64,000 nt of DNA from Chloroflexota bacterium. GTDB lineage: Bacteria > Chloroflexota > Dehalococcoidia > Dehalococcoidales > UBA2162. The notes beneath the pieces were generated by a model. It saw nothing but the letters and a program-made list of their open reading frames with translations. It made no database searches and was not told the DNA's origin. Positions 2,902 to 19,903 of the stretch are shown here, in pieces. The stretch covers positions 1,625-65,624 of the forward strand of contig JACPPR010000096.1 in assembly GCA_016190895.1 (NCBI GenBank), read 5' to 3'. Position numbers and translations under genes: made by a program. How positions within the stretch are numbered: the stretch's first letter is position 1; each line of letters starts with the position of its first letter.

Positions 2902-3664
2902 AGGCTTATGCCGGCTGCTTATTGGCAGCGATATACCTATCCTCCTTATAGACCCTGACCGGGTTGAGCAGCAAAACCTGATTCGCCAGAACTTTTACGA
3001 GGGCGACCTGGGCAAGTTCAAGTCTCAGGCGCTGGCGGAGAGGCTATCCCGGCAGTTCCACCGGCGCATCGCATACAGCGTCTACCCCTATATGCCTGAC
3101 CTTATCGGTGAGAACTGGGGCGGCGGCCTGCGCAGTCCTGCCATCCAGGGGATCATTATCGGCTGTGTTGATAACGCAGATGCCCGGCGGCAAATCGGCC
3201 AAACCCTGCGCTTCGGCAACTGGTGGCTCGATGCGGGTAATGGATTCTCATCGGGGCAGGTGCTGCTTGGCAGCGCTAAAAATCTTGAGCTTCTCGGCAG
3301 TCCTTTTATCAAAGAATCCGGAGAGGTAGAAGGGCTGCCCATGCCATCGTGGCAGCTCCCCAGTCTCCTGGCGCCGCCTACCAGGAAGAAACCTGAGACT
3401 CGGGATTGCGCCGAGGCGGTGGCCGCCGAAGAGCAGAGCCCCGTCATCAACCAGGCTATGGCCACGCTGGTACTGGAATTCATCTACCTGCTACTCAACA
3501 AAAAGCTTACCTGGATGGGGGCTTACATCGATTTGGATGCCGGCACCTTGCAGACAGTACGTGCCGAACCGGAGATAGTAGCCCGCATGTGTGGGGTGAA
3601 GGTCGACACCCTATTTAGGAATGATTGCTCTACAGGCAATCGATATTCACTTAGAAGGAGGTAA
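2813..3664 (+). CDS. ThiF/MoeB/E1-like adenylyltransferase (PRTRC ThiF family)
   Basis: IIVVGCGGTGS Rossmann motif and DPDRVEQQNLIRQ. GTG start 12 nt after GAGGAGG. Overlaps the JAB ORF by 89 nt. Confidence 0.85.
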   Translation: MTYTVSLARMPQNFSIIVVGCGGTGSFVAEGLCRLLIGSDIPILLIDPDRVEQQNLIRQNFYEGDLGKFKSQALAERLSRQFHRRIAYSVYPYMPDLIGENWGGGLRSPAIQGIIIGCVDNADARRQIGQTLRFGNWWLDAGNGFSSGQVLLGSAKNLELLGSPFIKESGEVEGLPMPSWQLPSLLAPPTRKKPETRDCAEAVAAEEQSPVINQAMATLVLEFIYLLLNKKLTWMGAYIDLDAGTLQTVRAEPEIVARMCGVKVDTLFRNDCSTGNRYSLRRR

Positions 3665-3667
3665 CCA

Positions 3668-4075
3668 ATGTCTGACGAAGAAGAGATCCCAGGTTCTGAA
3701 GAAGAAGAGGGTGGGGAAGAACAGGTGGCAATATCTACCGCACAGGAAGCGCCTGCAGCGGTGGCCGCGGATGCTCCTAACACGGAGAAGCCGTCCAATG
3801 AACTGAAGGTCGTAATCATACTGAAGGCCAACAAAGCGATGCTGGGAGTGCAGTCCCCCGATTGTGACCCGGTGTACAAGACCATGGAAGGCGACCTGGC
3901 CGCTGTTCTGAAGGTAGTACCTATACTGGTGGCTGATGCCAGGCTGAAGTGGTCCGCCGCTCCTCGGTATCCGAAGGCTGATTTACCCAAGCCGACAGCG
4001 CCTGCTACCACGACGCCCCCAGCGACAAGCAAGCCTGCTGCTAAAGCGGCCCCGGCGCAACCGAAATTCTTTTAG
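3668..4075 (+). CDS. acidic / Pro-Ala-rich protein (possibly PRTRC protein E-like), C-terminal QPKFF
   Basis: Strong RBS GAAGGAGG. Acidic N-terminus, PA/T-rich tail. Ends ...AQPKFF. Confidence 0.6.
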   Translation: MSDEEEIPGSEEEEGGEEQVAISTAQEAPAAVAADAPNTEKPSNELKVVIILKANKAMLGVQSPDCDPVYKTMEGDLAAVLKVVPILVADARLKWSAAPRYPKADLPKPTAPATTTPPATSKPAAKAAPAQPKFF

Positions 4076-4145
4076 GAGGCAACTATTATCTGCAAGCTTT
4101 TGGGCTGGCCTCCAAAGGCTGAATAAGTGGCCAAAAAGGAGGTGA

Positions 4146-5450
4146 ATGAAATTGGAAATTCAAGTTAACAAACTGAGAGAGCTGATGACCCTGATGAAAC
4201 CGGTAATCCCCAGGAAGTCTACCCTAAAGGTCACCGGCTATATCAGGGTCGGTGACGGCAAAGCGGTGGCGACCGACCTGGAAACCATGGTCATATACGA
4301 CCTACCCCAGGCTACCGAGCCTATGCTCCTGCCTTATACCTCCCTTGCCGATACCCTGAAGTACATACCCGGCAATACACTCAAGATTGAGGCGCAGGGT
4401 AGGAAGCTTTCCCTGGCATGGGACGGCGGCACTGCTGTCTACCCCACCGAGGATGTCGAGGACTTCCCGGTGTTGCCCGAACTGGAAACCAGAGCCGAGG
4501 GCTTAATCGATGGCGACGCTCTGGTATCGGCGATGCAGGCCGCTTTACCCTACACGGCAACTGATAGCCAGCGGCCGGTGCTTAGCGGCGTGACCCTGGT
4601 GTTGGGCAGCCCTATCGAGGTAGCCGCGGGAGACGGCTTCACCATGTCCCATCAGGTGCTGGGTCTTACCTTCCCTCTTGAAGAGAAAGTGATAGTACCA
4701 GCGCGCAGCGTATCCGTCCTGGGGCATGTCTTCGACAAGACGCCGCGGACACCGCCATCAACTGCCGATTCCTTGATATCGGTAATTACCGCCAAGCGGC
4801 AGATCCACATGGCTCTCATCGGCGAAAACAAGCTCAAGGTCGACTTCGGCGAGTCGGCATCCGTCGTCATCAACCTGATACAAGGGAACCCGCCCGAATG
4901 GCTGCAGCTAATCCCCAAGGGACAACCTACCCTGCAGAGCCATCTCTTCGCCCCGCAGTTCGAAGCGGCGGTCAAACGGGTCCGGGACATCGCAAAGGAT
5001 GGTAGCGGTATTGTCCGCATGGCGTTCGCTGACGGCAAGCTGACCGTCTCCGCAGTAGGAGAGGAGCAGGAAATCAGGGCCACCCTGGACGTCATAAGCA
5101 CTCAGGGCGAGCCGGGGAGAACGGCCATCAACTATGCCTACCTTCTCCGTTACCTTACCGGCAAGCAGGGTATCATCACTTTATCCCAATACGACAAGAC
5201 CGGCCCGCTAGCCTTCGAGTACCAGAATTCGCCGCGTGTCCTTATCATGCCCATGTTCGTACAATGGGGCGATGAGGCGGTGGCCACCAAGGAGCCGGAA
5301 CCAGAACCTGAGGCGGTTGAGGAAAATCCGGAAGGGGAGGAACCAGAGGCATCTCTCGAAGAGGAGACTCCTCAGGGAGAGACGGAAGAAACTGTTACCG
5401 CAGCAGCGAAACCAGCCGGCAAGAAACGCCGCAGAAAGACAACTCCCTAA
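4146..5450 (+). CDS. DNA polymerase III beta sliding clamp homologue (element-encoded) with charged C-terminal tail
   Basis: The N-terminus MKLEIQVNKLRELMTLMKPVIPRKSTLKVTGYIRV...ATDLETM and RPVLSGVTLV...AAGDGF resemble DnaN. An extra Glu-rich then KKRRRK tail follows. Confidence 0.8.
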   Translation: MKLEIQVNKLRELMTLMKPVIPRKSTLKVTGYIRVGDGKAVATDLETMVIYDLPQATEPMLLPYTSLADTLKYIPGNTLKIEAQGRKLSLAWDGGTAVYPTEDVEDFPVLPELETRAEGLIDGDALVSAMQAALPYTATDSQRPVLSGVTLVLGSPIEVAAGDGFTMSHQVLGLTFPLEEKVIVPARSVSVLGHVFDKTPRTPPSTADSLISVITAKRQIHMALIGENKLKVDFGESASVVINLIQGNPPEWLQLIPKGQPTLQSHLFAPQFEAAVKRVRDIAKDGSGIVRMAFADGKLTVSAVGEEQEIRATLDVISTQGEPGRTAINYAYLLRYLTGKQGIITLSQYDKTGPLAFEYQNSPRVLIMPMFVQWGDEAVATKEPEPEPEAVEENPEGEEPEASLEEETPQGETEETVTAAAKPAGKKRRRKTTP

Positions 5451-5539
5451 TCTCGACCCGGGAAGGCGGGGGTGCTGGGGCAGGCAAGCTCCAGCACCCC
5501 TCTTTATGAGTGATTTACATACCATGAAAGGAGGTTTTA

Positions 5540-5739
5540 TGAAAATAACTTCTTACGTAGAACTAACACCGGCCCAGGAAAAGACCATTGAGGCACTGGA
5601 AACAGTTACCGTCAGGACAGCGCTTATCAAACCGGCTGTCGTGGCCACGATTCGTACCTTCGCCGCGCAGGAAGTCAGGATAACTATTGCTGCCGATGGA
5701 GGAATTGAAGACGCGGAGGTTCAATATGACAGCCTCTGA
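5540..5739 (+). CDS. hypothetical small protein
   Basis: ATG preceded by AAAGGAGG. The longer track ORF (5236..) overlaps the clamp gene in another frame and looks spurious. Confidence 0.45.
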
Positions 5740-6214
5740 ACGAAAAGTTGAGGGATGGATAGACGACATAGTCGGCGCCCTCTTCGACCCCATCATAGTA
5801 ACGCCCGGTGGCTGGGGAGATGACTTGCCCGAGTGGTTAAAAACAAGGGTTACTCTTGAGCGCCTTGCCGAAAACATAGTAGCAACCAGGGAAGGTAGAG
5901 AAATAACCGCTACTGATGCCGAAGCCGCCTGTTACCTCTTTACTGCCTCGCTCACCGCGCCGATCGGAGGCGACTGGACCCAGATATACCTGTACGTTGC
6001 CGGCGGCGAGTTGAAGGACAAAATGCCGGAAGACATAAAGGTCGAGTCGTTAACCGAGAGCCAGTGGCGCGACTTAAAAGAGTTGAAGAACTGGATTTAC
6101 CGGCAGCGGGTGAAGCACCGCAAGGAAAAGGCACACGGAGAGCGCCGTGAAACCAAAGGAGAAGCTAATACAAAAGAGCTGGAAACCAGGCCGATCCAGC
6201 CAACATTCTTCTGA
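5726..6214 (+). CDS. hypothetical protein, C-terminal QPTFF
   Basis: ATG at 5726 after GGAGGT. Overlaps the previous stop. Ends ...RPIQPTFF. Confidence 0.55.
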   Translation: MTASERKVEGWIDDIVGALFDPIIVTPGGWGDDLPEWLKTRVTLERLAENIVATREGREITATDAEAACYLFTASLTAPIGGDWTQIYLYVAGGELKDKMPEDIKVESLTESQWRDLKELKNWIYRQRVKHRKEKAHGERRETKGEANTKELETRPIQPTFF

Positions 6215-6333
6215 GGTTAGTCGGTCATTCTGCAGAGATAGCGAAGCACACTAAGTGTCGGATTCTGTACGGGTCAGTGTTCTTGAATATGACTCAACTA
6301 TATCTTCTTGCGCGTGTCCTGTTCAATTCAAAT

Positions 6334-6957
6334 CTATGTATGAAGTAATTCTGCTTCAGACAATAACCCTTGATTTTTGATAAAAGCGCTTACAGTCATT
6401 CTGTTTACGCCAAAGATTCTCGCAATCTCACATTTCGATACTTTTCGCTTTAAGAGGACCTGTATCACACTCTCTTGACCAGACAATTTGACCTTACCCG
6501 ATTTACTGCCTATCGGTCTGCCAAGTACAACACCTTCAGCACGTTTGCGAGCGAGTGCCTCTTTGGTTCTCTGACTGATGAGGTTTCGCTCTATTTCAGC
6601 CGATAATCCAAAAGCAAAGGCCAAAACCTTGCTCTGTATGTCCTCACCCAAGCGATAATTGTCCTTTATCGTCCAAACCTTGCATTCTTTACTCATGCAA
6701 AGGTTCAAGATTTCCATAATCATGAATAGATTTCGACCCAAACGTGACAACTCAGCGCAAATAATCAGATCGTCTTTTTGGACTTTCCTGAGTAATTTCC
6801 CAAGCTCGCGTTTGTCATAATTCTTTGTTCCGCTGATAGTTTCCTCAATCCAGCCATCGATTTGAATATTGTTTCGACTCACAAAATTCTCAATCTCAAA
6901 TCGCTGGTTCTCAACTGTTTGTTTCTCGCTGCTCACTCGGATGTATCCGTAATTCAT
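6334..6957 (-). CDS. small serine recombinase (resolvase/invertase, Hin/Gin-like)
   Basis: MNYGYIRVSSEKQ catalytic-Ser motif. C-terminal HTH (KCEIARIFGVNRMTV). RBS GGAGTGAGGAG before the ATG at 6957. The upstream part of the track ORF is repeat-derived. Confidence 0.85.
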   Translation of the reverse strand: MNYGYIRVSSEKQTVENQRFEIENFVSRNNIQIDGWIEETISGTKNYDKRELGKLLRKVQKDDLIICAELSRLGRNLFMIMEILNLCMSKECKVWTIKDNYRLGEDIQSKVLAFAFGLSAEIERNLISQRTKEALARKRAEGVVLGRPIGSKSGKVKLSGQESVIQVLLKRKVSKCEIARIFGVNRMTVSAFIKNQGLLSEAELLHT

Positions 6958-6991
6958 GGTCTCCTCACTCCTTTTCTTGTTAATATATAAC

Positions 6992-7082
6992 GAGCGTTTA
7001 TATTGAGCGAAACAGTGCGGCCAGCCGTTTTGATTCCAACGATAGTTGGACAATCCTTTCCCCTATTGAGCAAAGCATAAAG
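6992..7082. repeat. inverted repeat IR-A, left arm
   Basis: 91 bp. Reverse-complement of 8693..8783 with 2 mismatches (aligned by eye). Confidence 0.85.
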
Positions 7083-7196
7083 CGAAAAATTGAGGCTGTT
7101 GGCATTCCACTCAAAAAGTGGGATGTAAATATTTATCGAGGTGTTCTTACGGGCTATAACGACGCATTTATCATTTCTGGTAAGAAAAAAGACGAG

Positions 7197-7298
7197 CTTA
7201 TTGCTGCCGACCCAAAATCTGCTGAAATTATACGACCGATTCTACGTGGCAGGGACATCAAACGGTATCACTATGAGTTCGCGGATTTGTGGCTGATA
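7197..7298. repeat. inverted repeat IR-B, left arm
   Basis: About 100 bp, reverse-complement of 8477..8578. Perfect 53-bp core at 7209..7261. Confidence 0.85.
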
Positions 7299-7457
7299 GA
7301 TACTCACAACGGGATACGTGAGAAGGGGATACCACCTGTCAATGTGAATGGATACCCTGCTATCAAAGCACACCTGAATCAATTTTATGATGCGCTTGAG
7401 AAAAGGCTTGACAAGGGTGATACGCCCTACAATCTGCGCAGTTGTGCTTATACGGAC

Positions 7458-7480
7458 GATTTTTCCAAGCAGAAAATTGT
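7458..7480. repeat. inverted repeat IR-C, left arm
   Basis: The 23-bp sequence gatttttccaagcagaaaattgt is the perfect reverse-complement of 8265..8287. It encodes DDFSKQKIVW in both cassettes. Confidence 0.75.
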
Positions 7481-7882
7481 TTGGGCTGAACTAGCCAGGA
7501 CAGGGAATGCTTTTACAATTGATACGTTGCATTCCATTGTCTTAAACACATCCTATGTCCTTACATCATCCAGTGACGATATCAACGAATTGAAGTATCT
7601 ATCTGGAATGTTAAATAGCATGACGACGATGTTTTATATGAACTTAATATCTAGTAAATTCGATCAAACAGGATGGCGATGGTTAAAACAATTTGTAGAA
7701 CGGTTACCTATTCCCAAACTATCTTATAATGAGCAACAGCCATTCATCAAGATGGTTGATGAAATTCTCGATTTGAAACGAAAACACCTTGACACCACAA
7801 CTTTAGAAAGAGACTTGGACAAAATGATTTATAGATTGTTCGACTTTTCGGACGAAGAGATACAAGCAATAGAAGCGTGAGC

Positions 7883-10800
7883 TCACTTTCCCATTAAGAA
7901 AGTTCTCTCTTCTTCATTAAATCCATACAAGTCACAAATCATATCATCCAGCCTTTGTTCTTCAACAGTAGTCGGATTGTTCTGACTTTTTGCCTCTAAG
8001 ATCAGACTGACACATGAAATGAAAGGCGTCTTTTCAGCTTCACTCAATATGGGAACCGGAAGTTTCTCTATAAACATCGGCTTATATTCAAAGTACCCGC
8101 CATTCCTTGTGACGCCAAGGCCTCGAACATAAAAATCTGCTACTTTAGAATTCAGCACGGACAGCAAATATCTATCTCCAGGGACAATCATGGTGGCCGG
8201 AGCACTGATGAAGTATAGTTCTCCAACAAGTGCATATTGAGCACGCAGACAAAGGTTTCCCCAGACAATTTTCTGCTTGGAAAAATCGTCCCAATAGCTT
8301 ATGCTATCCTGTGTTTCAAACCATTTGTTATTCGTTTTTTTCCGCGCAGTAACTATTTGGCCACCCACAATATGCTTTTCCCCAGTCTGCCGAAGGCGTT
8401 CTATTCCAAATGAAAGAAGATATTCTTTTACCGATGGATATTGCTCAATATCGTACTTTAGGCTTGGAAAGGTAGCTATCAACCACAAATTCGCGAACTC
8501 ATAGTGATACCGCTTGATGTCCCTGCCACGTAGAATCGGTCGTATAATTTCAGCAGATTTTGGGTCTGCAGCAATAAGTTCATCTCGTTTTTTCCGATCA
8601 ATAATGAAAGCCTCGTTGAATCCAGTTTTTATCCCGTAGTTTATATGTACATCCCACTCCTTGAGTGGAACACCAGCAGTATCAATTTTTCCCTTTATGC
8701 TTTGCTCAATAGGGGAAAGGATTGCCCAACTATCGTTGGAATTAAAACGGCTGGCCGCACTGTTTCGCTCAATATAAACGCTCAAATTGTTCAAGCAATC
8801 ATCCTTGATCACGCACGCTTCGGTTTGACCCTTGTTCTTGCCCTTCTCAAAAATCATAATGCTGACATCCACCGTTGCTGAATCAAAGATTCTCTGCCCC
8901 GCAAAATCTATCAGACGCAGCGGATTGGTCTTGTGGGCAAAGAATTCCCGAATCGCCTTACCATAACCAGCGCGTATCCATTTGTTGGAAGTGATGAATG
9001 ATAAAACTCCGCTATCAGCAAGAAGGCCGTATCCCCTCTCATAAAAAAGGCAATAAATATCACCCATGCGCGCAAAGGATTGATACTGCATCTTTTCCAG
9101 ACGGTCAGCCTCTTGCTGCACAGATTGGAGTTGGATATAAGGCGGATTGGCTATCACCACATCAAATCCATCACTTACGCCAAACATCCACCCGGTGTCG
9201 AACCAATCACATCTTTTGTATGAGAAGGGGTCCCATTCGGCGAGCATGCGAGTCTGGGTCGTATCTTTGGATTCTATCTTCTTGGCAGCTCCCGTGAGAT
9301 CGGTCTTTACTGCGACTAGCATTTTTCTCGCGTGTTCGCTTAGTTGTGCCTGTACCGCTTTGAATTCGTGCTTGATAGCCTCTTTGTTTTCGCTATCGGC
9401 AAAATAACTCTTCCTGAGTGTCGCCAATTTGCTAATCAATTCTTTGTTTTCCATTAATCCCATACCAGTGATCTCGGGTAAGCCGATAAGCGTATTTGCC
9501 GCTACGAACTTGAATTCCAGATTGGGTAAAGGCTCGATGCCTCTGTTTCCCTCATTGTCCAGAACCATCTCATCCACAACGAGAGATAGGAAACACCGCA
9601 GTTTGGCAATCTCCACGGCGATGGGCTGGATGTCCACGCCATAGATAGAGTCACGGATAATCATCAGCTTGCGGATATACGCCCAGTTTTCCCGCTTGAC
9701 GTTCTTCTCCACAGTCTGGCGGACGATACTATCTAGCGTGCTCAGATACTGCTTTCTCCAGATTTCAAGCTTCGGGTCAACCCTCTCCAGCGCGAGCAAC
9801 ATCCGGTGCAGGATGCCCATCGGGAAAGCTCCCGAACCGCAGGCTGGATCTATAATTTTAATTTCCTTCAGAGCTGTAACTACGCTGTTCTTCTGCTCAT
9901 CTGTAAGCTCTACACCCTCATCTTCATACGAGAGCAAAGCAGCAAGGTTGTCCTCAGATATGGCGGTCTTCGTGAGCAGGTACTGCTTCAAAGACTGCTC
10001 CACCATATAATCAACAATGACGCGCGGGGTGTAATAGCTACCGGTTGCCTTGCGGGCGGTCTCGCCCGTCTCTGGCACCACCTCTGCCAGCAGGTTCTCA
10101 AAGATTCTGCCGAGCATTTCTGGGTCGACCGAGACTTCCGCGTCCACAGTGCTGTTTTCATCTATGGTGAAGTTATACTGTTCCAGAACGCTGAAGAAAT
10201 CCTTGAACCAGGTATCCGGTATTTTAAGAGCGTCAATCAGTGATCGCTTATAAAAATCGTTCTCGTGCGGCTCGAACAGCCCGCCGTTCAAGAACGGAAC
10301 TTTGTCTGCCTCCGGAACCGCAACTGGCTTCCGTTCTTTAACCGGCGTATTCATCAAGCCGAAGAAGAGCGGCTCCAGGACGGCATGGTAATAGCCGAGA
10401 TGCGTACTTGCTGCCGCAGTCGAAAGCGCGCTGTCAGAAATAAGCGGGATGCCCGCCGCTGACTTCTTATGCTTCAAGAACCAGCAAAATATCGCCCGGC
10501 CGATAAGCCTGACCGCGAATTCTTCATACGCCTTTTTGTCACCATCGTCGACTGACGACAATGTCAGCTCTTTTGGAAAGCCGCCTCTGCCGGTGAGGCG
10601 GTAGAAATAACGGGCAATTTCCTCATAGAATAGCTTATTGACCTTCTCCACGGAGAAAGCGTCTTTGACAATATCCAAACTGGCAAAGCTACATTCACCG
10701 ATTCTCTTTTTGAAGGTGTTGTTGGTCTGGCCGCTGCTGACAAAGTAAGTGAAGCGGCGGAAATTGCTCCAGACCGTGCGCGCGGCGTCCGGCGTGCCGT

Positions 10801-11143
10801 AAACCAGGCTCAGGCGGAAATTGCCGGACTGGTCGCTGAAGACGAACATGCCGGCGTCATACCGCATATATTGTTTGAGGATTTTCCTGGCCTTTTCGTA
10901 CTGGGCTTTCTTGCCGCTTCGCTCGGTTAAACCCCCGGCGATACTGGCCGTGACCACTACCAGCCTTTCGGCGGGACTGAAGTTGATTTCGCCAATTGCG
11001 TGGAAGCCTGAGAACTCGTCATCATCGTATTCAGAGAGGTCGTCTTCCGCTTCGGCATAGCAGTTAGTTGCATTCTGGAAGAATTCGTTCAAGTAGCCCT
11101 CTACGCCTTTATCGATGACTTTTTGCAGCAGTTTCTTGCTCAT
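7883..11143 (-). CDS. large N6-adenine DNA methyltransferase with C-terminal specificity region (Eco57I / PglX / DrmMI-like)
   Basis: 1086 aa. Motif I IIDPACGSGAFPMG and motif IV VVIANPPYIQ. The start overlaps the helicase stop (ATGA). Confidence 0.85.
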   Translation of the reverse strand: MSKKLLQKVIDKGVEGYLNEFFQNATNCYAEAEDDLSEYDDDEFSGFHAIGEINFSPAERLVVVTASIAGGLTERSGKKAQYEKARKILKQYMRYDAGMFVFSDQSGNFRLSLVYGTPDAARTVWSNFRRFTYFVSSGQTNNTFKKRIGECSFASLDIVKDAFSVEKVNKLFYEEIARYFYRLTGRGGFPKELTLSSVDDGDKKAYEEFAVRLIGRAIFCWFLKHKKSAAGIPLISDSALSTAAASTHLGYYHAVLEPLFFGLMNTPVKERKPVAVPEADKVPFLNGGLFEPHENDFYKRSLIDALKIPDTWFKDFFSVLEQYNFTIDENSTVDAEVSVDPEMLGRIFENLLAEVVPETGETARKATGSYYTPRVIVDYMVEQSLKQYLLTKTAISEDNLAALLSYEDEGVELTDEQKNSVVTALKEIKIIDPACGSGAFPMGILHRMLLALERVDPKLEIWRKQYLSTLDSIVRQTVEKNVKRENWAYIRKLMIIRDSIYGVDIQPIAVEIAKLRCFLSLVVDEMVLDNEGNRGIEPLPNLEFKFVAANTLIGLPEITGMGLMENKELISKLATLRKSYFADSENKEAIKHEFKAVQAQLSEHARKMLVAVKTDLTGAAKKIESKDTTQTRMLAEWDPFSYKRCDWFDTGWMFGVSDGFDVVIANPPYIQLQSVQQEADRLEKMQYQSFARMGDIYCLFYERGYGLLADSGVLSFITSNKWIRAGYGKAIREFFAHKTNPLRLIDFAGQRIFDSATVDVSIMIFEKGKNKGQTEACVIKDDCLNNLSVYIERNSAASRFNSNDSWAILSPIEQSIKGKIDTAGVPLKEWDVHINYGIKTGFNEAFIIDRKKRDELIAADPKSAEIIRPILRGRDIKRYHYEFANLWLIATFPSLKYDIEQYPSVKEYLLSFGIERLRQTGEKHIVGGQIVTARKKTNNKWFETQDSISYWDDFSKQKIVWGNLCLRAQYALVGELYFISAPATMIVPGDRYLLSVLNSKVADFYVRGLGVTRNGGYFEYKPMFIEKLPVPILSEAEKTPFISCVSLILEAKSQNNPTTVEEQRLDDMICDLYGFNEEERTFLMGK
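8265..8287. repeat. inverted repeat IR-C, right arm
   Basis: Partner of 7458..7480. Confidence 0.75.
8477..8578. repeat. inverted repeat IR-B, right arm (inside the MTase gene)
   Basis: Partner of 7197..7298. Perfect core at 8514..8566. Confidence 0.85.
8693..8783. repeat. inverted repeat IR-A, right arm (inside the MTase gene)
   Basis: Partner of 6992..7082. Confidence 0.85.
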
Positions 11144-14100
11144 TTCTGTTCCCCGATATTTTCAATGGCGACAATGACCTCTTTATCCAATTGCCCGATT
11201 TTCTGCTTTATTTTAGCCAGATAATCCGGGCCGAGGTCCAGTTGCAGGCTGCCGAGTTCTTTTTGAACTATGGCAATCTTCGCTTCATCTCCAGCATCTG
11301 CCGCTAGGTTAGCGATGCGTCTTAAAGTGTAATCGGAAAGCGTCTTATAATCCTCGATGTCCTCCACCAGGTTCAACAGGAGTTGGCGGAACTCACGATA
11401 GTTATCTGTCTTGTCCGCTAATAGAGCTTTCACCTTTAAGTGAGCTTTTTTCTCGACGCTCAGCTCGCTGGAAGGCACGCCGGACTTTTCTTTCAGGTCC
11501 TTGATTCTGGTGTATTTCTCCCAGAAGCCGTCACTGAGCGGCAGAGCCTTTTCATCCTTGCCGCATTTAATCAACGGCAATGCTTCTTCAAACAGCAGCT
11601 CGGCCGGTTCTTTGGTTTCTCCTGACATGCCCCTGATAAATAGTCCCATCCCTTTCTTGATAAAGACGGTCAGTGAGTATTCATCGTTTGATTTGGCTAC
11701 TTTCACGCGGGAGGGGAGGGTGGCGATCCTCTGCTTGGTTGCTTCATCGATTTCAGCATACATTCTGCGTATGCCGGTCTGGAAACTCTCCAGCTCCAGC
11801 CCGTCCGGATTTTGCTGAATCTTCTCGAATAATCCGGAGGCCGTGGGTTCTTCGTCTGCTTCAAATACCTTTGAATCCTCCCCAAGGGTATTGTGAATCA
11901 TAAACATCTTCTCTGTGGCGATTTGTCTGCTCCGCACGATCGATGCGCCCTGGAGGGTAGGGAAGAAGTTGTAAACATAGAGGTTATCGAAGACCTTCTT
12001 ACTGATGCGGTTGATTCTGCCGACGCGCTGGACAACTCGGGTGGGATTCCAGGGAATATCGAGATTAATCACGGCGCCGGCGCGGTTAAGATTCACGCCC
12101 TCTGACATTTTATCTGTGGTAATCAGAATCTGATATTTGTTGTTCTGGTTTTTATACGTGGTATCGAAGTTGCTTATGATTTCTGTAGCTTTCGTCTTAT
12201 TCAAATCCCCTTTGACACTGATAATCTGGCCGCTGAATTTCTTTTCCAGGCGAGCCTCGACATACTTAACCGTATCGGCGTATTCGGAGAAGACAATTAC
12301 CTTTCTTATCGGCTCAGTGGCTTTGTCCTTTTGCTTCAGAATCTTGGATAGTTCAGTTTCCAAAGCAGCTAATTTCGGGTCATTATCTACCAATTTCAGG
12401 GTATCCAGTTCATCGAGGATTCTTCCGAAGAGGGCAATATCGGCTTCAATATCTGCCAGGAACACCTTCTTTTGTTTGAATTCTTTATTCAAATCATAGA
12501 CCTTGTAGTGTTTGGGGAAATTGCCCGAGGTGAGCATCTGTTCGAACTTCTCCAACTCCTCGGCAATATCATCCTCGTCATCCTGGTATATCCGGTCGAT
12601 AAGCTCGCGGTCGAGGATATATTTCTCTCCGCTGTTAACGATGAAGGTTTGGACCATTTCGGTGATGCGTTTGAAGTTTTCCATACTCTGCCGGAACGCG
12701 CCAAAGGAACTTTCGAACCTTTTCACCAGCAACCGTCTCATAAAGTCATACAAGTTCTTCTGTATCAACGCTGCCCGGTTTTCCTCTTCGTCAAGTGAGC
12801 CGGGGTCCTTGCCAACAATACCAGCTTCATACTCGAAGGGGCGGTAGATGGTGCCTTTGAAATCGCCGCCCTCACCGAAATATTTTGAAATAACGCGGTC
12901 GTAAAACTCCGACTGCTCCGGGGTCAACGCGAAAAAAGCTTCACACGGGTCTTTGACCTCGGACAACTCATAGATTTCTTTTGAATATACCGGGTCTTTC
13001 TTTAAGTCAATGCGGTTGCGCCGGATGGTGACCGGCGAGATGACCGATTTGATGTCATTGGCCAGGTATTTAGATCGTGCAGTTACCCGTTTCAGGTCAA
13101 TCCTATCTGACTCAAACAGAGCTTTATAGTCCGCTAGGGCGCTTTCGCGCCTGTCTTTATCCGTGGAATTGTGGTTCTTCTTGATATTTGAGAGTCGCCT
13201 GAAAGTTTGGCTATACTGCCGGAATCTTTCATCCAGATTGTTAGACAAGATAAGACTTGATTTACCCGGCACGGTAAACAGCTTGAGCATCGAGAAAATG
13301 TCCGCGGGTGTGTTGTTGAAAGGGGTGGCAGTGAGCAAGATAACGATTTTATTGCGGCAGATATCACTCAAAATTGAGTATGCTTCTGTATCCTGGTTAC
13401 GGAATCGGTGCGCCTCGTCGATGATTACCACTTCGAAGTCGCTCTCATTCTGCACCAGCTTGAGCGTGTCTCTCAAGGTCTCCAAACCGCAACTTCTGAT
13501 TTCCCATCCGTTAAGCTCGAAATCTTGCCTGTATTTGTCCCAGCCGGTCCGGATGCCGTCATCAACCCCGCCCTTGAGAGCTGGCGGGCATATGATTAAG
13601 CCCCTCTTGTACAGGCACTTAGCGACCATTCCTGCAATAATGCTTTTCCCAAGACCAACGACGTCCGATATTATGACGCCATTTTCTTTTTCGATAATAC
13701 TCAAAGCTTGCGCGACAGCATTTACCTGGTAAGCATATTTCTTGTACCCGTTTTTCTCCAGAAGCTGGAAGACGTAATCCTTGATGTCTTTGGGCTTATG
13801 CAATTCCAGATACGTTTTTAGAACAAAAGCAAAGGCTTCGTAAGGAGTTACTTCAGCTATTAGTGTGGCTTCTCTCAGTAGTTTTACTAATTCCCATCTA
13901 AAAGCATCGTCTTCGGTGATTTTGACGGCTTTCGTCCAGAGGTCATCGAAATAATCCTCTGCCTCCTGAGTTCCGTAATCACTGATTTCAACATTAAACT
14001 CATTTTGCTGGCCTAACCCGGCCCGAGTGAGATTGCTACTTCCGGTGATGAAACAACACGGTTTCAAGTCTGCATGGTCGTCCTTCATGTTGAAGAGGTA

Positions 14101-14520
14101 CAATTTGGCATGATTAGGTTCACGAGTCTTCTTGATGATCAGTCTGTTGTCCAGAATGGCCTGAACAAAGAACTTGGCTTGTTCATAGAATTCTTCAGTA
14201 TCAAACTCATCCGAATTGACGGACTTGACGATCGATTCTTTGAACAGTTGTTGATGTTTGTTCCCATCGATTTTACCAACGGCTCCGTACTCAACAAGGC
14301 CGTAGCCTTGTTTATCGACACTGAGACCCACAAGAACCTTGGTAACTACGTCGGGATTGTGCTTGATAGCCTCATACAATTCTCTAATACCGGAGAAATA
14401 GAAGAAACCGACCAGGAATTTCAACTCCTTGCTGAAACCAATGAGCTTTGAGATTCTATCCTTTAGGATCTTGCTGCCCGCATTATTGATGAAGGTGTTT
14501 TGTGACCTTGAGTCCGACAT
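11140..14520 (-). CDS. PLD-family nuclease domain fused to an SNF2-family helicase
   Basis: N-terminal HKD motif NHAKLYLF...ITGSSNLT. SNF2 motifs DVVGLGKSIIAG, DEAHRFRN, LLTATPFNN and VVQRVGRINRI. ATG 14520 lies after AAGGA. The ORF stays open to TTG 14559. Confidence 0.85.
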   Translation of the reverse strand: MSDSRSQNTFINNAGSKILKDRISKLIGFSKELKFLVGFFYFSGIRELYEAIKHNPDVVTKVLVGLSVDKQGYGLVEYGAVGKIDGNKHQQLFKESIVKSVNSDEFDTEEFYEQAKFFVQAILDNRLIIKKTREPNHAKLYLFNMKDDHADLKPCCFITGSSNLTRAGLGQQNEFNVEISDYGTQEAEDYFDDLWTKAVKITEDDAFRWELVKLLREATLIAEVTPYEAFAFVLKTYLELHKPKDIKDYVFQLLEKNGYKKYAYQVNAVAQALSIIEKENGVIISDVVGLGKSIIAGMVAKCLYKRGLIICPPALKGGVDDGIRTGWDKYRQDFELNGWEIRSCGLETLRDTLKLVQNESDFEVVIIDEAHRFRNQDTEAYSILSDICRNKIVILLTATPFNNTPADIFSMLKLFTVPGKSSLILSNNLDERFRQYSQTFRRLSNIKKNHNSTDKDRRESALADYKALFESDRIDLKRVTARSKYLANDIKSVISPVTIRRNRIDLKKDPVYSKEIYELSEVKDPCEAFFALTPEQSEFYDRVISKYFGEGGDFKGTIYRPFEYEAGIVGKDPGSLDEEENRAALIQKNLYDFMRRLLVKRFESSFGAFRQSMENFKRITEMVQTFIVNSGEKYILDRELIDRIYQDDEDDIAEELEKFEQMLTSGNFPKHYKVYDLNKEFKQKKVFLADIEADIALFGRILDELDTLKLVDNDPKLAALETELSKILKQKDKATEPIRKVIVFSEYADTVKYVEARLEKKFSGQIISVKGDLNKTKATEIISNFDTTYKNQNNKYQILITTDKMSEGVNLNRAGAVINLDIPWNPTRVVQRVGRINRISKKVFDNLYVYNFFPTLQGASIVRSRQIATEKMFMIHNTLGEDSKVFEADEEPTASGLFEKIQQNPDGLELESFQTGIRRMYAEIDEATKQRIATLPSRVKVAKSNDEYSLTVFIKKGMGLFIRGMSGETKEPAELLFEEALPLIKCGKDEKALPLSDGFWEKYTRIKDLKEKSGVPSSELSVEKKAHLKVKALLADKTDNYREFRQLLLNLVEDIEDYKTLSDYTLRRIANLAADAGDEAKIAIVQKELGSLQLDLGPDYLAKIKQKIGQLDKEVIVAIENIGEQK

Positions 14521-14585
14521 TGATTGAGTCCTTCGTAGTAAGCTATGTTCCGAAATCAAGTCCCTCTGATTATCGTAATTATACT

Positions 14586-14600
14586 ACGATTGCCAATCGT
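14586..14600. promoter_or_regulatory. 15-bp perfect palindrome in the putative helicase-MTase promoter
   Basis: ACGATTG-c-CAATCGT. On the minus strand it lies between a TTGACG and a TATAAT (14-nt spacer), upstream of the 14520 start. Confidence 0.3.
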
Positions 14601-14797
14601 CAACAAACCATCATCATTGTGCTGCCGGTCAGTGGGGCGATTTTACCCTTCGTGGGTCACAAATCGTCGGCTTGTTTACCGAGCTCGATGTGGTCGTTTG
14701 CGGGTATTCAACCAGAGTGGTAAAATTGCGATTGTTGAAATGTCGTGCTTCCAGTGACTGGACCACTGTGGAGAATGGACACTTAAAAGGATAAGAC

Positions 14798-16858
14798 ATG
14801 CCGATAACCGCTACCCAAAAGGCACAAGCCGAACAGCATCAGTGGACTGCGGCAAGGGATGGCGCACCGCAGGTGAGACTTGTCGCCGGACCGGGCACTG
14901 GAAAGTCATACAGCATCGAAAAGCGGGTCGCTCATCTTCTGACGAACGGAGCGACTCCTGGCAACGTATACATCATCTCATTCACGCGAGCCACGTGCGC
15001 AGAACTTCGTGACCGCATCACGCGTTTCTGTAGCACTCTTACGTGTGCAAACGAAGCGACACAAGTGCGAGTTTCGACAATGCATTCACTTGCTCTTCGA
15101 ATCCTACGGCGAGCCAACTTGCTTGCTTCGTATCCCAGTACTCCGATTATGTTGGACGACTGGGAGCAAGCCAAGATTTACGATAGGGAATTGGCCGAAA
15201 GCCTCGGGTCCACACCTTCCCGCGCTGCTGAAATCAGACTCGCTCATGACTCGCAGTGGCAAACCCTCAATCCGCAGTATGTCAACCAGGCACAGATAAC
15301 ACCTGCCGAGGTTCAGGGGTTTAACGCGTTCCATTCTGCTCGAACCAACCTATATTGTTGTGTGCTTCCGGGCGAAGTGATCTTCAGATGTGTTCAAGCT
15401 CTCCAGCAAGGCGCTTTAGGAGCCAGCCAATTACCTCAAATCGATCACTTAGTCGTTGATGAATTCCAGGACCTTAACGCGTGCGACCAGGAATTCGTGC
15501 ATCTGCTGTGTGCAATGAACACGATTTTGTTTGTAGCAGGTGACGACGACCAGAGTATCTATTCTTTCCGTCACGCAGATCCCAACGGGATAGTTCAGTT
15601 CCAATCCGCCTATCCGGCATCGGCTACACACATATTAAATGACTGCTTCCGATGCGCTCCGAACATTCTTAGCGCAGCCAGCCGATTGATAGCCTATAAT
15701 CCAAATAGAGTTCCAAAGAATCTTACGTCGCTCTATAGTACTGCCTCGCCTCCTGTTCAAGGCACAATGCGAGTATGGTCTTTTCAGACGGCCCAAGAAG
15801 AGAGTCGAGCCATCGCCCAATCCTGCCAAGAACTACTCAAAGCTGGAATGGCGGGACAAGAAGATGAAATTCTAATTCTAATCTCCAATCGTCGGGTTCA
15901 ACTCGATATCTTGGCACAGGAATTAGGAAACCTTGGCCTTCCATACGAACCTCCTCGGGGTAGGGCACTCACAGATGAGTTTGAAGCCATTAGGGCCGTA
16001 TACTCGTTTCTTCGTATTGCCAAAGACAACTCGTCTGGCGAAGAAGACTACCCTTCACATAGGGACCTACTTGAGGTTCTCTCCGGTGTAGGAGCCTCCA
16101 CTGCGAAGGCTGTTGCGGATGCATGTATCTCCAACAATCAGAACTTCCGTCAACTGTTCTACTTGCCAACTTGCCCCGCTTGGCTTCCGGGACGGTGCCC
16201 TTCGGCGGTACAGCGTGTGATGGCTATTGTCCAGGCTGTTCGTGCGTGGAGCATGAGCGATACGCTGGCGACCCGGAGCAGCGACATCATGACTCTTCTG
16301 TCATCACAGGCGTTCACATCCGGTATCCACGCAACAAGCAGCTTGGCAACATGGAACGCCCTTCTTGGCTCACTTCCGTCTCAGATGACACTGGAGGAAT
16401 TGCTTCAGTTCCTTGCAGCAGACAGTGAATCTGATCAACAGACGATAATTAATTCGGTCAACCAGCGTATCGGAGGGACCCAGCCCCAAATCCAGGCTCC
16501 GAGCCGGATTCGGATTCTTACTATGCATGGGGCCAAAGGGCTAAGTGGAAAGGTCGTGTTTATTCCTGGAGCGGAGCAGGGCCTTATGCCTAGTTTCAAA
16601 GCCTTACAAGCCACGGGATTACTCATTGAACAACGACGCCTTTTTTATGTATCGGTCACCCGAGCGATGGCCTCCTGCATAGTCTCTCACGTGGCTCAGC
16701 ATTCGGGTGCACAAGCGATGGCTTTGACGCAGCGATCTGTCACGCGACTGACCCGCTCACAGTTCCTGAATGAGATGAATGTCTCAAGTGTCACACGCGC
16801 CTCGGGCCTGACGCAGGCAGAGGCACAAGCGATAGCGAGAGACGTCAACAATCTATGA
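14798..16858 (+). CDS. UvrD/Rep-family (SF1) DNA helicase
   Basis: Walker A LVAGPGTGKS, VVDEFQDLN, LTMHGAKGLSGKVVFIPG and RRLFYVSVTRA. Confidence 0.85.
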   Translation: MPITATQKAQAEQHQWTAARDGAPQVRLVAGPGTGKSYSIEKRVAHLLTNGATPGNVYIISFTRATCAELRDRITRFCSTLTCANEATQVRVSTMHSLALRILRRANLLASYPSTPIMLDDWEQAKIYDRELAESLGSTPSRAAEIRLAHDSQWQTLNPQYVNQAQITPAEVQGFNAFHSARTNLYCCVLPGEVIFRCVQALQQGALGASQLPQIDHLVVDEFQDLNACDQEFVHLLCAMNTILFVAGDDDQSIYSFRHADPNGIVQFQSAYPASATHILNDCFRCAPNILSAASRLIAYNPNRVPKNLTSLYSTASPPVQGTMRVWSFQTAQEESRAIAQSCQELLKAGMAGQEDEILILISNRRVQLDILAQELGNLGLPYEPPRGRALTDEFEAIRAVYSFLRIAKDNSSGEEDYPSHRDLLEVLSGVGASTAKAVADACISNNQNFRQLFYLPTCPAWLPGRCPSAVQRVMAIVQAVRAWSMSDTLATRSSDIMTLLSSQAFTSGIHATSSLATWNALLGSLPSQMTLEELLQFLAADSESDQQTIINSVNQRIGGTQPQIQAPSRIRILTMHGAKGLSGKVVFIPGAEQGLMPSFKALQATGLLIEQRRLFYVSVTRAMASCIVSHVAQHSGAQAMALTQRSVTRLTRSQFLNEMNVSSVTRASGLTQAEAQAIARDVNNL

Positions 16859-16920
16859 GTATGGCTGCACGGTTTTCTAACTTTTCATCTTCTTCAAGTG
16901 TGATAGATATCAGAAGTTGC

Positions 16921-17000
16921 TGGAGCGCAGCGATCGATCGCTTCTTTTCAAAAAGGAGTTCGGGACTGTTCCGAGTAGCCCAACTGAGGGGATTCGAACC
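16921..17000. repeat. direct repeat copy 1 with tRNA 3'-end-like core
   Basis: Core 16957..16999 is agttcgggactgttccgagtagcccaactgaggggattcgaac. It matches 19939..19982 with 2 mismatches plus 1 indel. Weaker similarity extends about 35 bp to the left. Confidence 0.7.
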
Positions 17001-17219
17001 GGCTATCAAAACACTAGCGGGAAAGTCTTCTCGAAAGTTTTACCTTTTGAACGGAATGGTGGACCTTAGCGGGTTCGGACTTTATAGACGTGGTCCCTTA
17101 GCGTAGCTGGCTGGCCATTGGAAGGTTATTGAAAAGACTCTCCGTCCCCTTTTGGTGGAACCTCTAGGGCCACGCTACCAATACGGTAGTGTATCATACA
17201 TACCACCAATACCGAATAC

Positions 17220-17247
17220 TTGACAATCACCATCACACGATTATAAT
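17220..17247 (+). promoter_or_regulatory. near-consensus sigma70-type promoter (TTGACA-N16-TATAAT)
   Basis: TTGACA at 17220..17225 and TATAAT at 17242..17247. It lies about 85 nt upstream of ATG 17333, which has a GAGGAGGG RBS. Confidence 0.55.
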
Positions 17248-17332
17248 GTAAGACAAAGAATAATTGTGTTGGAGGTAACCGGGAGGGGGCTGTTGCAAAA
17301 GGAAAAGCTGAGTCTTAACGAGGAGGGATTCC

Positions 17333-17782
17333 ATGGGCAGACATTTATCAGCAGAAATCGACAATAGCTTCGAGAGGAAACTGGTAGTCGAAAACGCTCT
17401 GGTCGCCGCTGCCAAAAGTGAGTTGGGTGAAAAACTAAGTGCGCGAGACCGAGCCAATTTGGAAGAGATAGTGAAGCTCTTCGAAGCTATCTTGCAAGGA
17501 GAACAGCAGTTACGGTCTCCGAGCTTGTCAGCTGTTTCTATTGACATGGCACAGGTTGCAAACAGGGTTGGGAGTATTTACAATACGAGATTCAAATTTT
17601 CCCAGTTTATCGCATTTGTGGCAGAGTTAAAGCAGATTGCTGAGGCAATGCTCGAAAACCGCAGAGTTATTGAAAGAAAGAGGCGCAATTTTGATGAGTT
17701 TCTCAATTTGCTCTCAGAATCAGAAGGCAAAGAAATAGAGCGGCTACAGTCTCTGCCGCTTGGGAGTTTCTCTGTGGCATGA
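17333..17782 (+). CDS. hypothetical alpha-helical protein
   Basis: 149 aa with a strong RBS. Its stop overlaps the next start (ATGA). Confidence 0.6.
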   Translation: MGRHLSAEIDNSFERKLVVENALVAAAKSELGEKLSARDRANLEEIVKLFEAILQGEQQLRSPSLSAVSIDMAQVANRVGSIYNTRFKFSQFIAFVAELKQIAEAMLENRRVIERKRRNFDEFLNLLSESEGKEIERLQSLPLGSFSVA

Positions 17783-19212
17783 GCACCCCGGCGGCGATTG
17801 CCCAGGACGCTTTGAATCTACTTGTTTCCCGCAGTAGAAGCGTTCGATTGTCGGCGGAGGCGCTCCTAGCAAAAGACTACCCTTCGGAAGTTCCTCGTAA
17901 TCTGATTCGCTGTGTGGTGTGCGCGACAAATCGGATTGACGCAGAAGTCTCCGAGATGTCATTCAGATTGAAGGCCAAACCTGAATATTCTGAGGTCACT
18001 CTCAAGGAAGCAAAGCTTCGTCATACTTTTCTCACTTATCTTCAAACGGTGATACTGTCTCTTGTTGATGGCGCCGAAACGGGTAAGGCTCCGGCTGAAT
18101 GGATCTGGCCAATCCAACGCATGGTAGAGGAGCTTTTCCCTGGGTGCCAAATTCTGGTCAGGTCGGTACACGAACTGAACTATTTCTTTGCTCCTCTTGG
18201 TGCGATGATCCAGAAGAAATTTGCGTCACTAGGTATGGACGACATTCTCAAGGATAACGGCCTTCTTGAGGAGATCTGGATGCTAGGGACATCTTCGTTC
18301 CCTCCTAGCGGAATTTTGACTCATTGTTTAATTGCCCATGAGATTGGCCATGGTATATATGAAACACGCAAACTGGGCGACCAAATTCTGAGGTCAGTTA
18401 AGATAGATGACCGTGCTGCTTCGAATATCGTTGATCTCATCGCTTCACAAATGGTGGAAGAGTCTTCGAGTCAAGAAACGGGTCCAAGGATTACGGGTAC
18501 ACGACTAGATACGCACATAGACAGAAGTTGGCTTGAATTGTCTGTAAATGCAAGACTCAAAGAAATCCTCTCCTGTTGGGCCGAAGAGTTTGCTTGCGAC
18601 GTGATAGGGTTAAGAATCCTTGGTCCCGCGTTCCTGTTATCGCAACTCTATTTCTTATTTCCGCTAGCTTCTATCGATGTGGGCGATGTTGAACACCCGA
18701 CCCCTCGGATGAGGCTGCGGTTATCAATCAACGCTCTACTTGGAACTGAAGAAGGACTTGGATACCGAATCGTTAAGTCACTGGATATTCAGAGCGTTTT
18801 ACAGAATTGGCAGAAAACTATCATGTCGTCAGAACCGAAGGCTAATGACCCGTATTTCGATGAGGCCTATAAAATGTTACGCCCAAGCCTGCGGGAGATA
18901 TTGAAGTTGTGCAAAAAGGAAACTAAGACATTAGCATACAGTCCGGACCGCTTAGACAAGGATGTGCCTAAACTTCTGACTCGTATTGGAGACGGTATTC
19001 CTCCTAATGAGCTTTGGGATGAGAAATCACAGTGTTTCCAGCCTGCTTATATGGCTTCAATCCTAAATGCAGGGTGGCTAGCTTTCGTTGCACCAGAGTT
19101 GCCCATGCCTTTTCGGAGTGTGACCAAGCAAGAGGCAGAAGGTAGGTTGCTTTCTTTGGTCGAGAAGGCAATGGAGTATTCTGAATTGGCACGGTTGAGC
19201 CAAAAGAAGTAA
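17779..19212 (+). CDS. HExxH zinc-metallopeptidase-like protein
   Basis: 477 aa. CLIAHEIGHGIYE (HExxH) and a downstream EEFACDVIGLRILGPAF helix. Translationally coupled to both neighbours. Confidence 0.65.
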   Translation: MSTPAAIAQDALNLLVSRSRSVRLSAEALLAKDYPSEVPRNLIRCVVCATNRIDAEVSEMSFRLKAKPEYSEVTLKEAKLRHTFLTYLQTVILSLVDGAETGKAPAEWIWPIQRMVEELFPGCQILVRSVHELNYFFAPLGAMIQKKFASLGMDDILKDNGLLEEIWMLGTSSFPPSGILTHCLIAHEIGHGIYETRKLGDQILRSVKIDDRAASNIVDLIASQMVEESSSQETGPRITGTRLDTHIDRSWLELSVNARLKEILSCWAEEFACDVIGLRILGPAFLLSQLYFLFPLASIDVGDVEHPTPRMRLRLSINALLGTEEGLGYRIVKSLDIQSVLQNWQKTIMSSEPKANDPYFDEAYKMLRPSLREILKLCKKETKTLAYSPDRLDKDVPKLLTRIGDGIPPNELWDEKSQCFQPAYMASILNAGWLAFVAPELPMPFRSVTKQEAEGRLLSLVEKAMEYSELARLSQKK

Positions 19213-19213
19213 T

Positions 19214-19861: not shown

Positions 19862-19903
19862 GCGAACTGTTATATTCAAGTGAGACATGATACCAGTAGT
19901 TGT

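Follow-up and report, generated by a model that had tools for sequence, protein, structure and literature searches.

A PLD-SNF2 helicase overlapping an Eco57I-type methylase with a putatively exchangeable recognition domain: a probable two-subunit restriction-modification module in a Chloroflexota genome

Can a helicase with a nuclease domain and an adenine methylase, encoded by two overlapping genes, constitute a restriction-modification system by themselves? This question is raised by a locus of a Chloroflexota bacterium (Dehalococcoidia, Dehalococcoidales, UBA2162; assembly GCA_016190895.1), analysed here within a stretch of 64,000 nucleotides (contig JACPPR010000096.1, positions 1,625 to 65,624 of the forward strand) that is referred to as the window and in which all positions are given unless another contig or locus is named. 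The assembly is a metagenome-assembled genome (MAG) of 2.09 Mb, 79% complete. According to the list of open reading frames (ORFs), their translations and Pfam, the first gene (14520..11140, minus strand) encodes HEL, a helicase-nuclease of 1126 amino acids in which a phospholipase D (PLD) domain with an HKD motif is fused to an SNF2 motor. The second gene (11143..7883, minus strand) encodes MT, an Eco57I-type, gamma-class N6-adenine methyltransferase of 1086 amino acids with a TaqI_C-type recognition domain. The evidence discussed below favors the view that HEL and MT are a two-subunit, ATP-dependent restriction-modification module with an anti-phage role, which we regard as probable. The pair is a member of a widespread family that has been noticed in silico since 2018 and is still unnamed.

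By the ORF coordinates, the stop codon of HEL and the start codon of MT have four bases in common (ATGA, 11140-11143), as the first-pass annotation of this DNA had stated when it treated both genes as one unit. The HEL frame offers two alternative starts, TTG 14559 and ATG 14520. The latter is the likelier one, because the Shine-Dalgarno sequence GAAGGA is found 8 nt before it and the gene call in the database also comprises 1126 amino acids. One promoter-like site (TTGGCA-16-GATAAT; 14569..14596, minus strand), which is recognised only by a 10/12 match to the consensus, lies ahead of the overlapping pair, some 49 nt before the start codon of HEL. To judge from this arrangement, HEL and MT are one translationally coupled unit.

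The Pfam domains of HEL are PLDc_2, SNF2-rel_dom, ResIII and Helicase_C. The PLD domain (approximately residues 20-210, numbered from ATG 14520) contains a single HxK (H137 and K139) and a GSSN (160-163), and the SNF2 motor comprises motifs I (GLGKS, 289-293), II (DEAH, 368-371), III (TATP, 397-400) and VI (QRVGRINR, 831-838); the C-terminal ~220 residues are uncharacterised. The first-pass annotation had described a PLD-type HKD motif fused to a complete SNF2 motor as well as gamma-class motifs in the methylase, and both descriptions are confirmed by the located motifs; the strings that it quoted (HAKLYLF...GSSNLT, DPACGSGAF, and NPPY) are all found in the translations. In 19 homologues, down to 34% identity, the residues H137, K139, G160-N163, K292, D368/E369/H371, and Q831/R832/G834/R835/R838 are invariant. 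Since these belong to the HKD, GSxN and ATPase motifs, both the nuclease and the ATPase activities of HEL are likely retained. Close homologues, at 87-90% identity, are likewise intact, and more than 7,700 database proteins are related to HEL at E 1e-10 or better. A PDB sequence search with HEL retrieved generic Snf2 lobes only. The best PADLOC model, "C3a139 HKD+Snf2", corresponds to a type III CRISPR accessory family (PMC6546367) and was rejected as a system assignment, the match being only 2e-39, while HmaA-type PADLOC models match HEL in the C-terminal helicase lobe only. The Aravind group has assigned fusions of HKD and superfamily 2 (SF2) helicase domains the restriction role in Type I/III-like systems.

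MT contains the Pfam domains Eco57I (1.2e-37), N6_Mtase, MmeI_Mtase, and TaqI_C, and no nuclease domain was found in it by Pfam. Its motifs follow the gamma-class order X-I-IV (X, TP at 372; I, DPACGSG, within DPACGSGAF 432-440; IV, NPPY 666-669). Its predicted structure matches CamA, M.BseCI, PglX/BrxX, MmeI and BpuSI in Foldseek, the alignments with MmeI, BpuSI and PglX extending over ~970-1175 columns, and a PDB sequence search with MT returned the methylase cores of CamA and M.BseCI only. At 9133-9170, several metagenome contigs match ~30 nt only and then continue into unrelated sequence; these are probably methylase genes of other organisms with the same conserved codons for the NPPY of motif IV.

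The N-terminal domain of MT (residues 1-165; 10649..11143, minus strand) deserves separate attention. Alignment and structure prediction define it as a family-specific alpha/beta domain, modelled in two independent predictions at a predicted local distance difference test (pLDDT) score of 85-90. The alignment contains 12 invariant positions (G51, Q81, Y82, F102, F109, R110, S112, R130, N141, T143, F144, and F163), with no acidic residue or lysine among them. Foldseek gave no significant fold match in the PDB (best E 2.7e-3, template-modelling score <=0.35), and MmeI, BpuSI and Mrr-type domains are not among its matches. A nuclease hidden at the N-terminus of MT was considered, and it is unsupported by the alignment, by the two structure predictions and by the Foldseek search against the PDB. 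Because the domain has neither a conserved acidic/lysine catalytic set nor a fold match, MT is most likely not a true Type IIG enzyme, and the nuclease is most likely supplied in trans by the single HKD motif of HEL. A profile of the domain detects 498 clusters at 50% identity (1.84 billion representatives searched). Of the 150 matches listed, nearly all have the domain beginning no later than about residue 45, in full-length host proteins of ~1000-1250 amino acids, and the domain is still detectable in methylases that stand beside helicases of only 32-35% identity to HEL. It appears, then, that the domain changes in step with the clade of the helicase, which is the reason to propose it as a docking or licensing surface for HEL.

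The association of both genes extends far beyond this genome. Related loci were surveyed by tblastn in species genomes, metagenomes and IMG/VR, looking only for genes of the window. The species-genome scan was made with a single sequence and provided only 9 loci, owing to narrow peptide patterns; the alignment-based scans of metagenomes and viral contigs were more useful. An MT homologue adjoins HEL in eight of the nine species-genome loci, which cover five phyla (the pair was found in Dehalococcoidia, other Chloroflexota, Spirochaetales, Berkelbacteria, and Cloacimonadota). Gene tables reveal the overlapping pair, with unrelated flanks, in Dehalogenimonas lykanthroporepellens BL-DC-9, in CP054675 and in an Andersenbacteria MAG. 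Among the 80 metagenome loci, about 60 have enough flanking sequence, and in ~56 of these a methylase lies within 8 kb of HEL, mostly directly downstream; similarly, ~38 of the 45 full-length HEL relatives on IMG/VR contigs are accompanied by a methylase, down to 27% HEL identity. Strict linkage together with gene overlap across phyla makes a chance adjacency of MT and HEL unlikely. By these comparisons, the pair is a conserved, self-contained unit around which the flanking genes vary.

Some variation exists within the unit itself. On plasmid pMESIL02 of the cultured thermophile Allomeiothermus silvanus (locus L016), an alternative gene order is observed: a methylase with the same N-terminal domain (2780-5194) lies upstream of the helicase (6995-10372), the two are separated by a 984-nt ORF, and hypothetical genes follow the helicase. 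A third gene stands between HEL and MT in L037 (11381-12742), L048 (11366-12775), and L021 (5504-6334). Judging by their first residues, we take these inserted genes to be either RhuM/Bro-like or of the "KEGEGYKIEFKE...SSGG" N-terminal type (AlbA_2-like); genes of this sort are often carried along in Type I restriction-modification operons. In the species-genome loci, identity amounts to 24-31% in the recognition domain, as against 59-75% in the remainder of MT and 72-76% in HEL. The fast-diverging recognition domain and the inserted genes support an evolution like that of restriction-modification systems. Two helicase homologues with an adjacent serine recombinase are found without an intact methylase (L055, 5078-11360, where there is only a 143-aa ORF; L056, 116-4155), and they are possibly decayed loci or systems with a different partner. 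The module is single-copy in the source genome and nearly absent from 40 relatives, a patchy distribution that fits horizontal acquisition; homologues also occur on plasmids and on virus-like (IMG/VR) contigs.

A minimal translocase-nuclease/methyltransferase module had been suggested in the first-pass annotation, and this suggestion is supported by the conservation of the pair across phyla, by the lack of a recognisable nuclease in MT and by the apparently switchable recognition domain described below. In the mechanism that we propose, MT would be the subunit that serves for recognition as well as modification. A short asymmetric site would be read by its TaqI_C-type domain, and its gamma-class domain would methylate an adenine at that site, marking the host DNA as self, while at an unmethylated site MT would recruit or license HEL, probably via the family-specific N-terminal domain. 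HEL would be the restriction subunit, a Snf2-type translocase with half a PLD site that would move along double-stranded DNA (dsDNA) using ATP. The translocation of dsDNA is an established property of Snf2-family motors, and one PLD site is built from two chains in Nuc, BfiI, and SauUSI. Cutting would be carried out by two HEL chains joining their HKD halves, as in BfiI, SauUSI and MtsD, either when two complexes converge or within a constitutive HEL dimer. If cleavage needs two HKD halves, it should be most efficient where sites are paired or converge. A serine invertase would swap the last ~200-300 MT codons for those of a silent inverted cassette, in such a way that the specificities of methylation and restriction would change together. 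The logic of MANTIS (Gao_RL; a Type-2 BREX-related system, MtsA-D) supports this model, because its PLD-helicase effector MtsD acts, as a dimer, downstream of the methylase complex on unmethylated DNA. MANTIS is likewise methylase-guided and restricts unmethylated DNA via MtsD, which dimerises to form one joint PLD active site, and its restriction favors inverted site pairs (bioRxiv 10.64898/2026.09.23.753747).

Several points weigh against this reading. The interaction between MT and HEL is deduced only from the co-occurrence and the co-variation of their sequences. The order of elements in the modelled N-terminal domain of MT (alpha-beta-beta-beta-alpha-beta) would fit a degenerate restriction-endonuclease fold; this is no evidence of activity, and a cryptic nuclease in the domain is conceivable but improbable. 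The related effector MtsD has so far not cleaved DNA in vitro (bioRxiv 10.64898/2026.09.23.753747). There are HEL homologues with no methylase in the 8 kb downstream (L029, L055, and L056) or in the 2.4 kb available (L022). Finally, as the assembly is incomplete, the absences established at genome level are provisional; those within the locus are firm.

That the recognition domain is switchable is suggested by the region downstream of MT. Repeat analysis defines the end of MT (residues 787-1086; 7886..8785, minus strand) as an expressed, exchangeable recognition-domain segment, beside which a silent, start-less, inverted recognition-domain cassette of ~298 codons keeps an open frame (6984..7880, plus strand). 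The cassette (Pfam TaqI_C, 5.9e-9) is a divergent copy of MT 787-1086, with 29% identity to MT 886-1079 in its variable part and 86-92% DNA identity in the repeat blocks. It is followed by the gene of an invertase-type serine recombinase (6334..6957, minus strand; 207 amino acids from an internal ATG) with a Resolvase N-terminal domain (PF00239, 1.8e-33) and a helix-turn-helix. The cassette and MT share three inverted repeats: A (6992-7132 with A' 8643-8783, 92% complementary), B (7149-7303 with B' 8472-8626, 86% complementary), and C (7449-7485 with C' 8260-8296, 37 nt). The cassette and MT are arranged tail to tail, and both stop codons (TGA on the plus strand for the cassette; that of MT reads TCA on the same strand) lie inside the 8-nt palindrome TGAGCTCA (7878-7885); therefore, the frame closes at one and the same position whichever way the invertible segment is oriented. 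A crossover at A, B or C would leave the reading frame undisturbed and replace nested portions of the recognition domain. The inverted copy of the last ~300 codons, the three repeat blocks and the adjacent serine recombinase bear out the variable specificity domain that had been suspected at first reading. The recombinase shares 79% identity with its counterpart at the equivalent cassette of L009, and 58% with the Mpi-family invertase from the Lactococcus plasmid pJM1F; the layout of cassette plus recombinase recurs in L009, in pJM1F, in 5 of the 80 metagenome loci and in 5 of the 45 viral-contig loci, its overall frequency among related loci being roughly 7-10%.

The locus is present in four groundwater metagenome runs (X1-X4). 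Contig breaks at repeats A and B were not counted as evidence of inversion, because these repeats exceed the word length of the assembler and the breaks are thus uninformative. At repeat C, the identical core common to both copies measures only 27 nt and falls short of that word length. In run X1, there is a 33-nt chimeric unitig, with a depth of 8 versus 19-29 for the parental contigs, whose first 30 bases are the reverse complement of 7454-7483 and whose last 30 bases are 8265-8294. This 33-mer does not occur in the window, its three 31-mers are likewise all new, and its length is exactly that predicted for a crossover inside the 27-nt core, by which the expressed proximal recognition segment is joined to the silent distal one. 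This one unitig from X1 suggests that recombination takes place at the locus in the groundwater population. The reciprocal junction of repeat C was not seen in the assembled contigs and unitigs, from which rare variants are dropped; its absence is not predicted by a simple inversion unless it was removed by graph cleaning.

An invertible recognition domain of this kind resembles the phase-variable methylases that control regulons, and the module might chiefly be a phase-variable epigenetic switch (phasevarion) or, alternatively, a BREX-like exclusion system without cutting, in which HEL would remodel or block DNA. In this sense, BREX and MANTIS are examples of methylase-guided defence that does not necessarily involve cleavage detectable in vitro. 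Nonetheless, the invariant catalytic residues of the HKD motif would be hard to explain without nuclease activity. The genomic setting also speaks for defence, since the module is patchy among relatives, occurs on virus-like contigs and plasmids, and lies within a low-GC defence island (approximately 6000-20000, with a GC of 0.42-0.51 versus ~0.56 in the 6 kb to its left). A function mainly as a switch, or as a non-cutting barrier, is considered unlikely.

The opposite distribution of roles would make MT a complete Type IIG enzyme of the Eco57I, MmeI or Cj0031 kind, bearing a nuclease at its N-terminus, and HEL an accessory protein or an independent neighbour. The likeness is real: as in Type IIG enzymes, the gamma N6-adenine methylase and the recognition domain of MT are in one chain (Pfam, motif order, and fold), and the succession of helical spacer, gamma methylase and recognition domain is common to MT, the Type IIG/IIL enzymes Eco57I, MmeI, BpuSI and Cj0031, and PglX of BREX. 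The best PADLOC model of MT is REase_MTase_IIG (3e-151), the orf34 counterpart from Lactococcus has received a REBASE-style annotation as Type IIG (PMC6098607), and the order of elements in the N-terminal domain mentioned above may be adduced as well. However, the PADLOC match comprises residues 159-1081 and leaves the N-terminal domain uncovered, and an in-chain endonuclease, usually PD-(D/E)XK in Type IIG enzymes, is not recognisable in MT. Furthermore, among the invariant residues of the N-terminal domain there is neither an acidic one nor a lysine, Foldseek found no structural counterpart for it among nucleases, MmeI and BpuSI included, and the strict linkage and overlap of MT with HEL across phyla would not be expected from chance. 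We find a self-sufficient Type IIG enzyme quite improbable in the light of these data.

The module might also be decaying or inactive in the source organism, which is known from a MAG, and some related loci are visibly decayed (L055 and L080). Against this, neither ORF is truncated and no motif is damaged, the homologues at 87-90% identity are intact too, and even the silent cassette keeps an open frame; such a loss of function is very improbable.

As for multigene defence systems, the first-pass annotation had pointed to a partial resemblance to DISARM and BREX, and this holds for the classes of domains and for nothing beyond them. DISARM class 1 likewise combines an SNF2 helicase, a PLD nuclease and an N6-adenine methylase, but there PLD and SNF2 are separate proteins, whereas they are fused in HEL, and the core DrmA/DrmB pair is absent here. 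The ORFs neighbouring the pair were scanned in 4146-20555 (eleven by Pfam and seven by PADLOC), and none of them matches DrmA, DrmB, PglZ, or BrxC, in agreement with the absences claimed at first reading. Nor do the Pfam tables of neighbouring genes, which cover six loci from three more helicase relatives, contain a partner of the DrmA/DrmB type. The sole PF09369 (DUF1998/MZB) match of the genome is located on another contig (C45, 11329-11568; L098), unlinked to the locus, in a 781-aa frame that is possibly an MrfA/YprA-type helicase and not the DrmB of DISARM. PglZ (PF08665) is absent from the whole assembly, BrxC not having been searched genome-wide. With the curated NCBIfam models, HEL reaches 156 bits against DrmD (NF038317), in partial stretches, for a cut-off of 610, and MT reaches 86 bits against PglX (NF033452) for a cut-off of 500; in PADLOC, MT matches DrmMI at 3e-25 only, against 3e-151 for the Type IIG model. 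MANTIS, for its part, requires the DUF499 AAA+ loader MtsA and the DUF3780 protein MtsB. DUF499 (PF04465) was found neither in the genome nor among the scanned neighbours, DUF3780 not having been searched for. Moreover, the methylase of MANTIS cannot bind DNA alone, whereas MT carries its own TaqI_C recognition domain. Membership in DISARM, BREX or MANTIS was rejected by the curated cut-offs and the genome-wide family searches. That the pair is what remains of DISARM class 1, BREX or MANTIS/Gao_RL/Hma, or a minimal version of one of them, with partners encoded elsewhere, as the common helicase, nuclease and methylase classes and the partial matches to DrmD, DrmMI, PglX and HmaA (PADLOC and NCBIfam) might suggest, is scarcely credible, given that all those matches are partial and far below the cut-offs and that the partners looked for were not found with the pair, either here or in the six loci of the three helicase relatives.

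The two-subunit restriction-modification reading can be placed next to other ATP-dependent enzymes. The Type ISP systems (LlaGI and LlaBIII) contain the same functional parts, namely a nuclease, an SF2 translocase, a gamma methylase and a recognition domain. They differ in that a single polypeptide bears them all, with an Mrr-type PD-(D/E)XK nuclease, whereas in HEL-MT they are divided between two polypeptides, the nuclease being of the PLD type and the motor of the Snf2 type; the motor of Type ISP enzymes is HsdR-like. Type ISP enzymes recognise asymmetric sites and cleave after translocation and collision (PMC3874165). A PLD nuclease coupled to an ATP-driven SF2 motor, as in HEL, is also found in the Type IV enzyme SauUSI, a structural relative of MtsD, and in CglI/NgoAVII. 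SauUSI targets methylated DNA and has no methylase, unlike HEL-MT. CglI/NgoAVII are paired with a C5 methylase. Their nuclease and motor are placed on separate subunits (PMC5861437).

The first reading had implied that the combination found in HEL-MT is new. In this regard, its novelty is limited, since the same inference was drawn in 2018 (PMC6098607) and the genomic context was listed in 2023 (PMC9881135); what stands is that no name and no experiment could be found in the literature searched for the pair of HKD-SNF2 protein and Eco57I-type methylase, so that it is not known to belong to an already named and characterised system. Searches of the literature by COG numbers and by DrmD/DrmMI gave nothing specific. 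Van Mastrigt et al. (2018) described on plasmid pLd8 of Lactococcus lactis FM03P an orf33 with PLD, SNF2 and helicase domains and its partner orf34, placed the nuclease in orf33 and noted a domain content like that of class 1 DISARM (PMC6098607). HEL-MT fits this orf33-orf34 type, a PLD-SNF2 fusion adjoining, and usually overlapping, a nuclease-less Eco57I/TaqI_C methylase. The pLd8 counterpart pJM1F, from L. cremoris JM1, has the same four parts: PLD-SNF2 helicase, overlapping Eco57I/TaqI_C methylase, inverted TaqI_C cassette and serine invertase. The Lactococcus methylase is 37% identical to MT over residues 161-1083, and the Lactococcus helicase ~25-28% identical to HEL, but the N-terminal ~215 amino acids of that methylase are unrelated to the N-terminal domain of MT. 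Milman et al. (2023, Nucleic Acids Research) reported Cj0031-like methylases with flanking coding sequences for PLD and SNF helicase in Bacteroides ovatus CP083813.1 and in CP044495.1, and confirmed programmed inversions of methylases by long reads (PMC9881135). In CP083813.1, the PLD and SNF helicase sequence lies immediately upstream of the Cj0031-like Type II restriction-modification gene and is listed as genomic context, with no functional claim. A Parabacteroides relative in our survey (L017) has a HEL of 34% identity. The predicted specificity switch driven by an invertase is not new to the copy studied here, as it is also described for pJM1F and by Milman et al. (2023).

Other genes of the low-GC island appear to be separate modules. 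A UvrD-type helicase is encoded divergently from HEL (14798-16858, plus strand) and matches GajB models at 1.6e-47, with no GajA-like partner found among the scanned neighbours. It was rejected as a third component, being absent from related loci and having no GajA partner. There is also a three-gene operon of the dCTP-deaminase fold; neither this operon nor the UvrD/GajB-like helicase travels with the pair in related loci.

Taken as a family, these pairs may represent a mechanistically distinct class of ATP-dependent restriction-modification, a proposal that we put forward tentatively, at somewhat short of even confidence. A methylase derived from Type IIG would have swapped its nuclease for a docking domain of no recognised fold that licenses a dimerising PLD-Snf2 motor nuclease of the chromatin-remodeller type, and one serine invertase would re-aim modification and restriction together by shuffling as many as three nested recognition-domain segments, here and in other lineages. 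From standard predictors, one would obtain a "Type IIG" label for the methylase and no assignment for the helicase, by which a very common defence unit is misdescribed. If the mechanism is true, no simpler system would be known in which a separate methylase directs a Snf2-type translocase that carries half a PLD site. HEL-MT would parallel MANTIS with two proteins in place of four, and Type ISP with its parts divided between two chains, and would thus offer a good minimal model for self/non-self discrimination by methylase-guided motors. The linked invertase shufflon would illustrate how such a system can change its target while self-protection is kept. The copy in the window is a well-preserved example from an uncultured groundwater bacterium of the Dehalococcoidia type, not a new kind of system, and it is the family as a whole that offers a worthwhile target for experiments.

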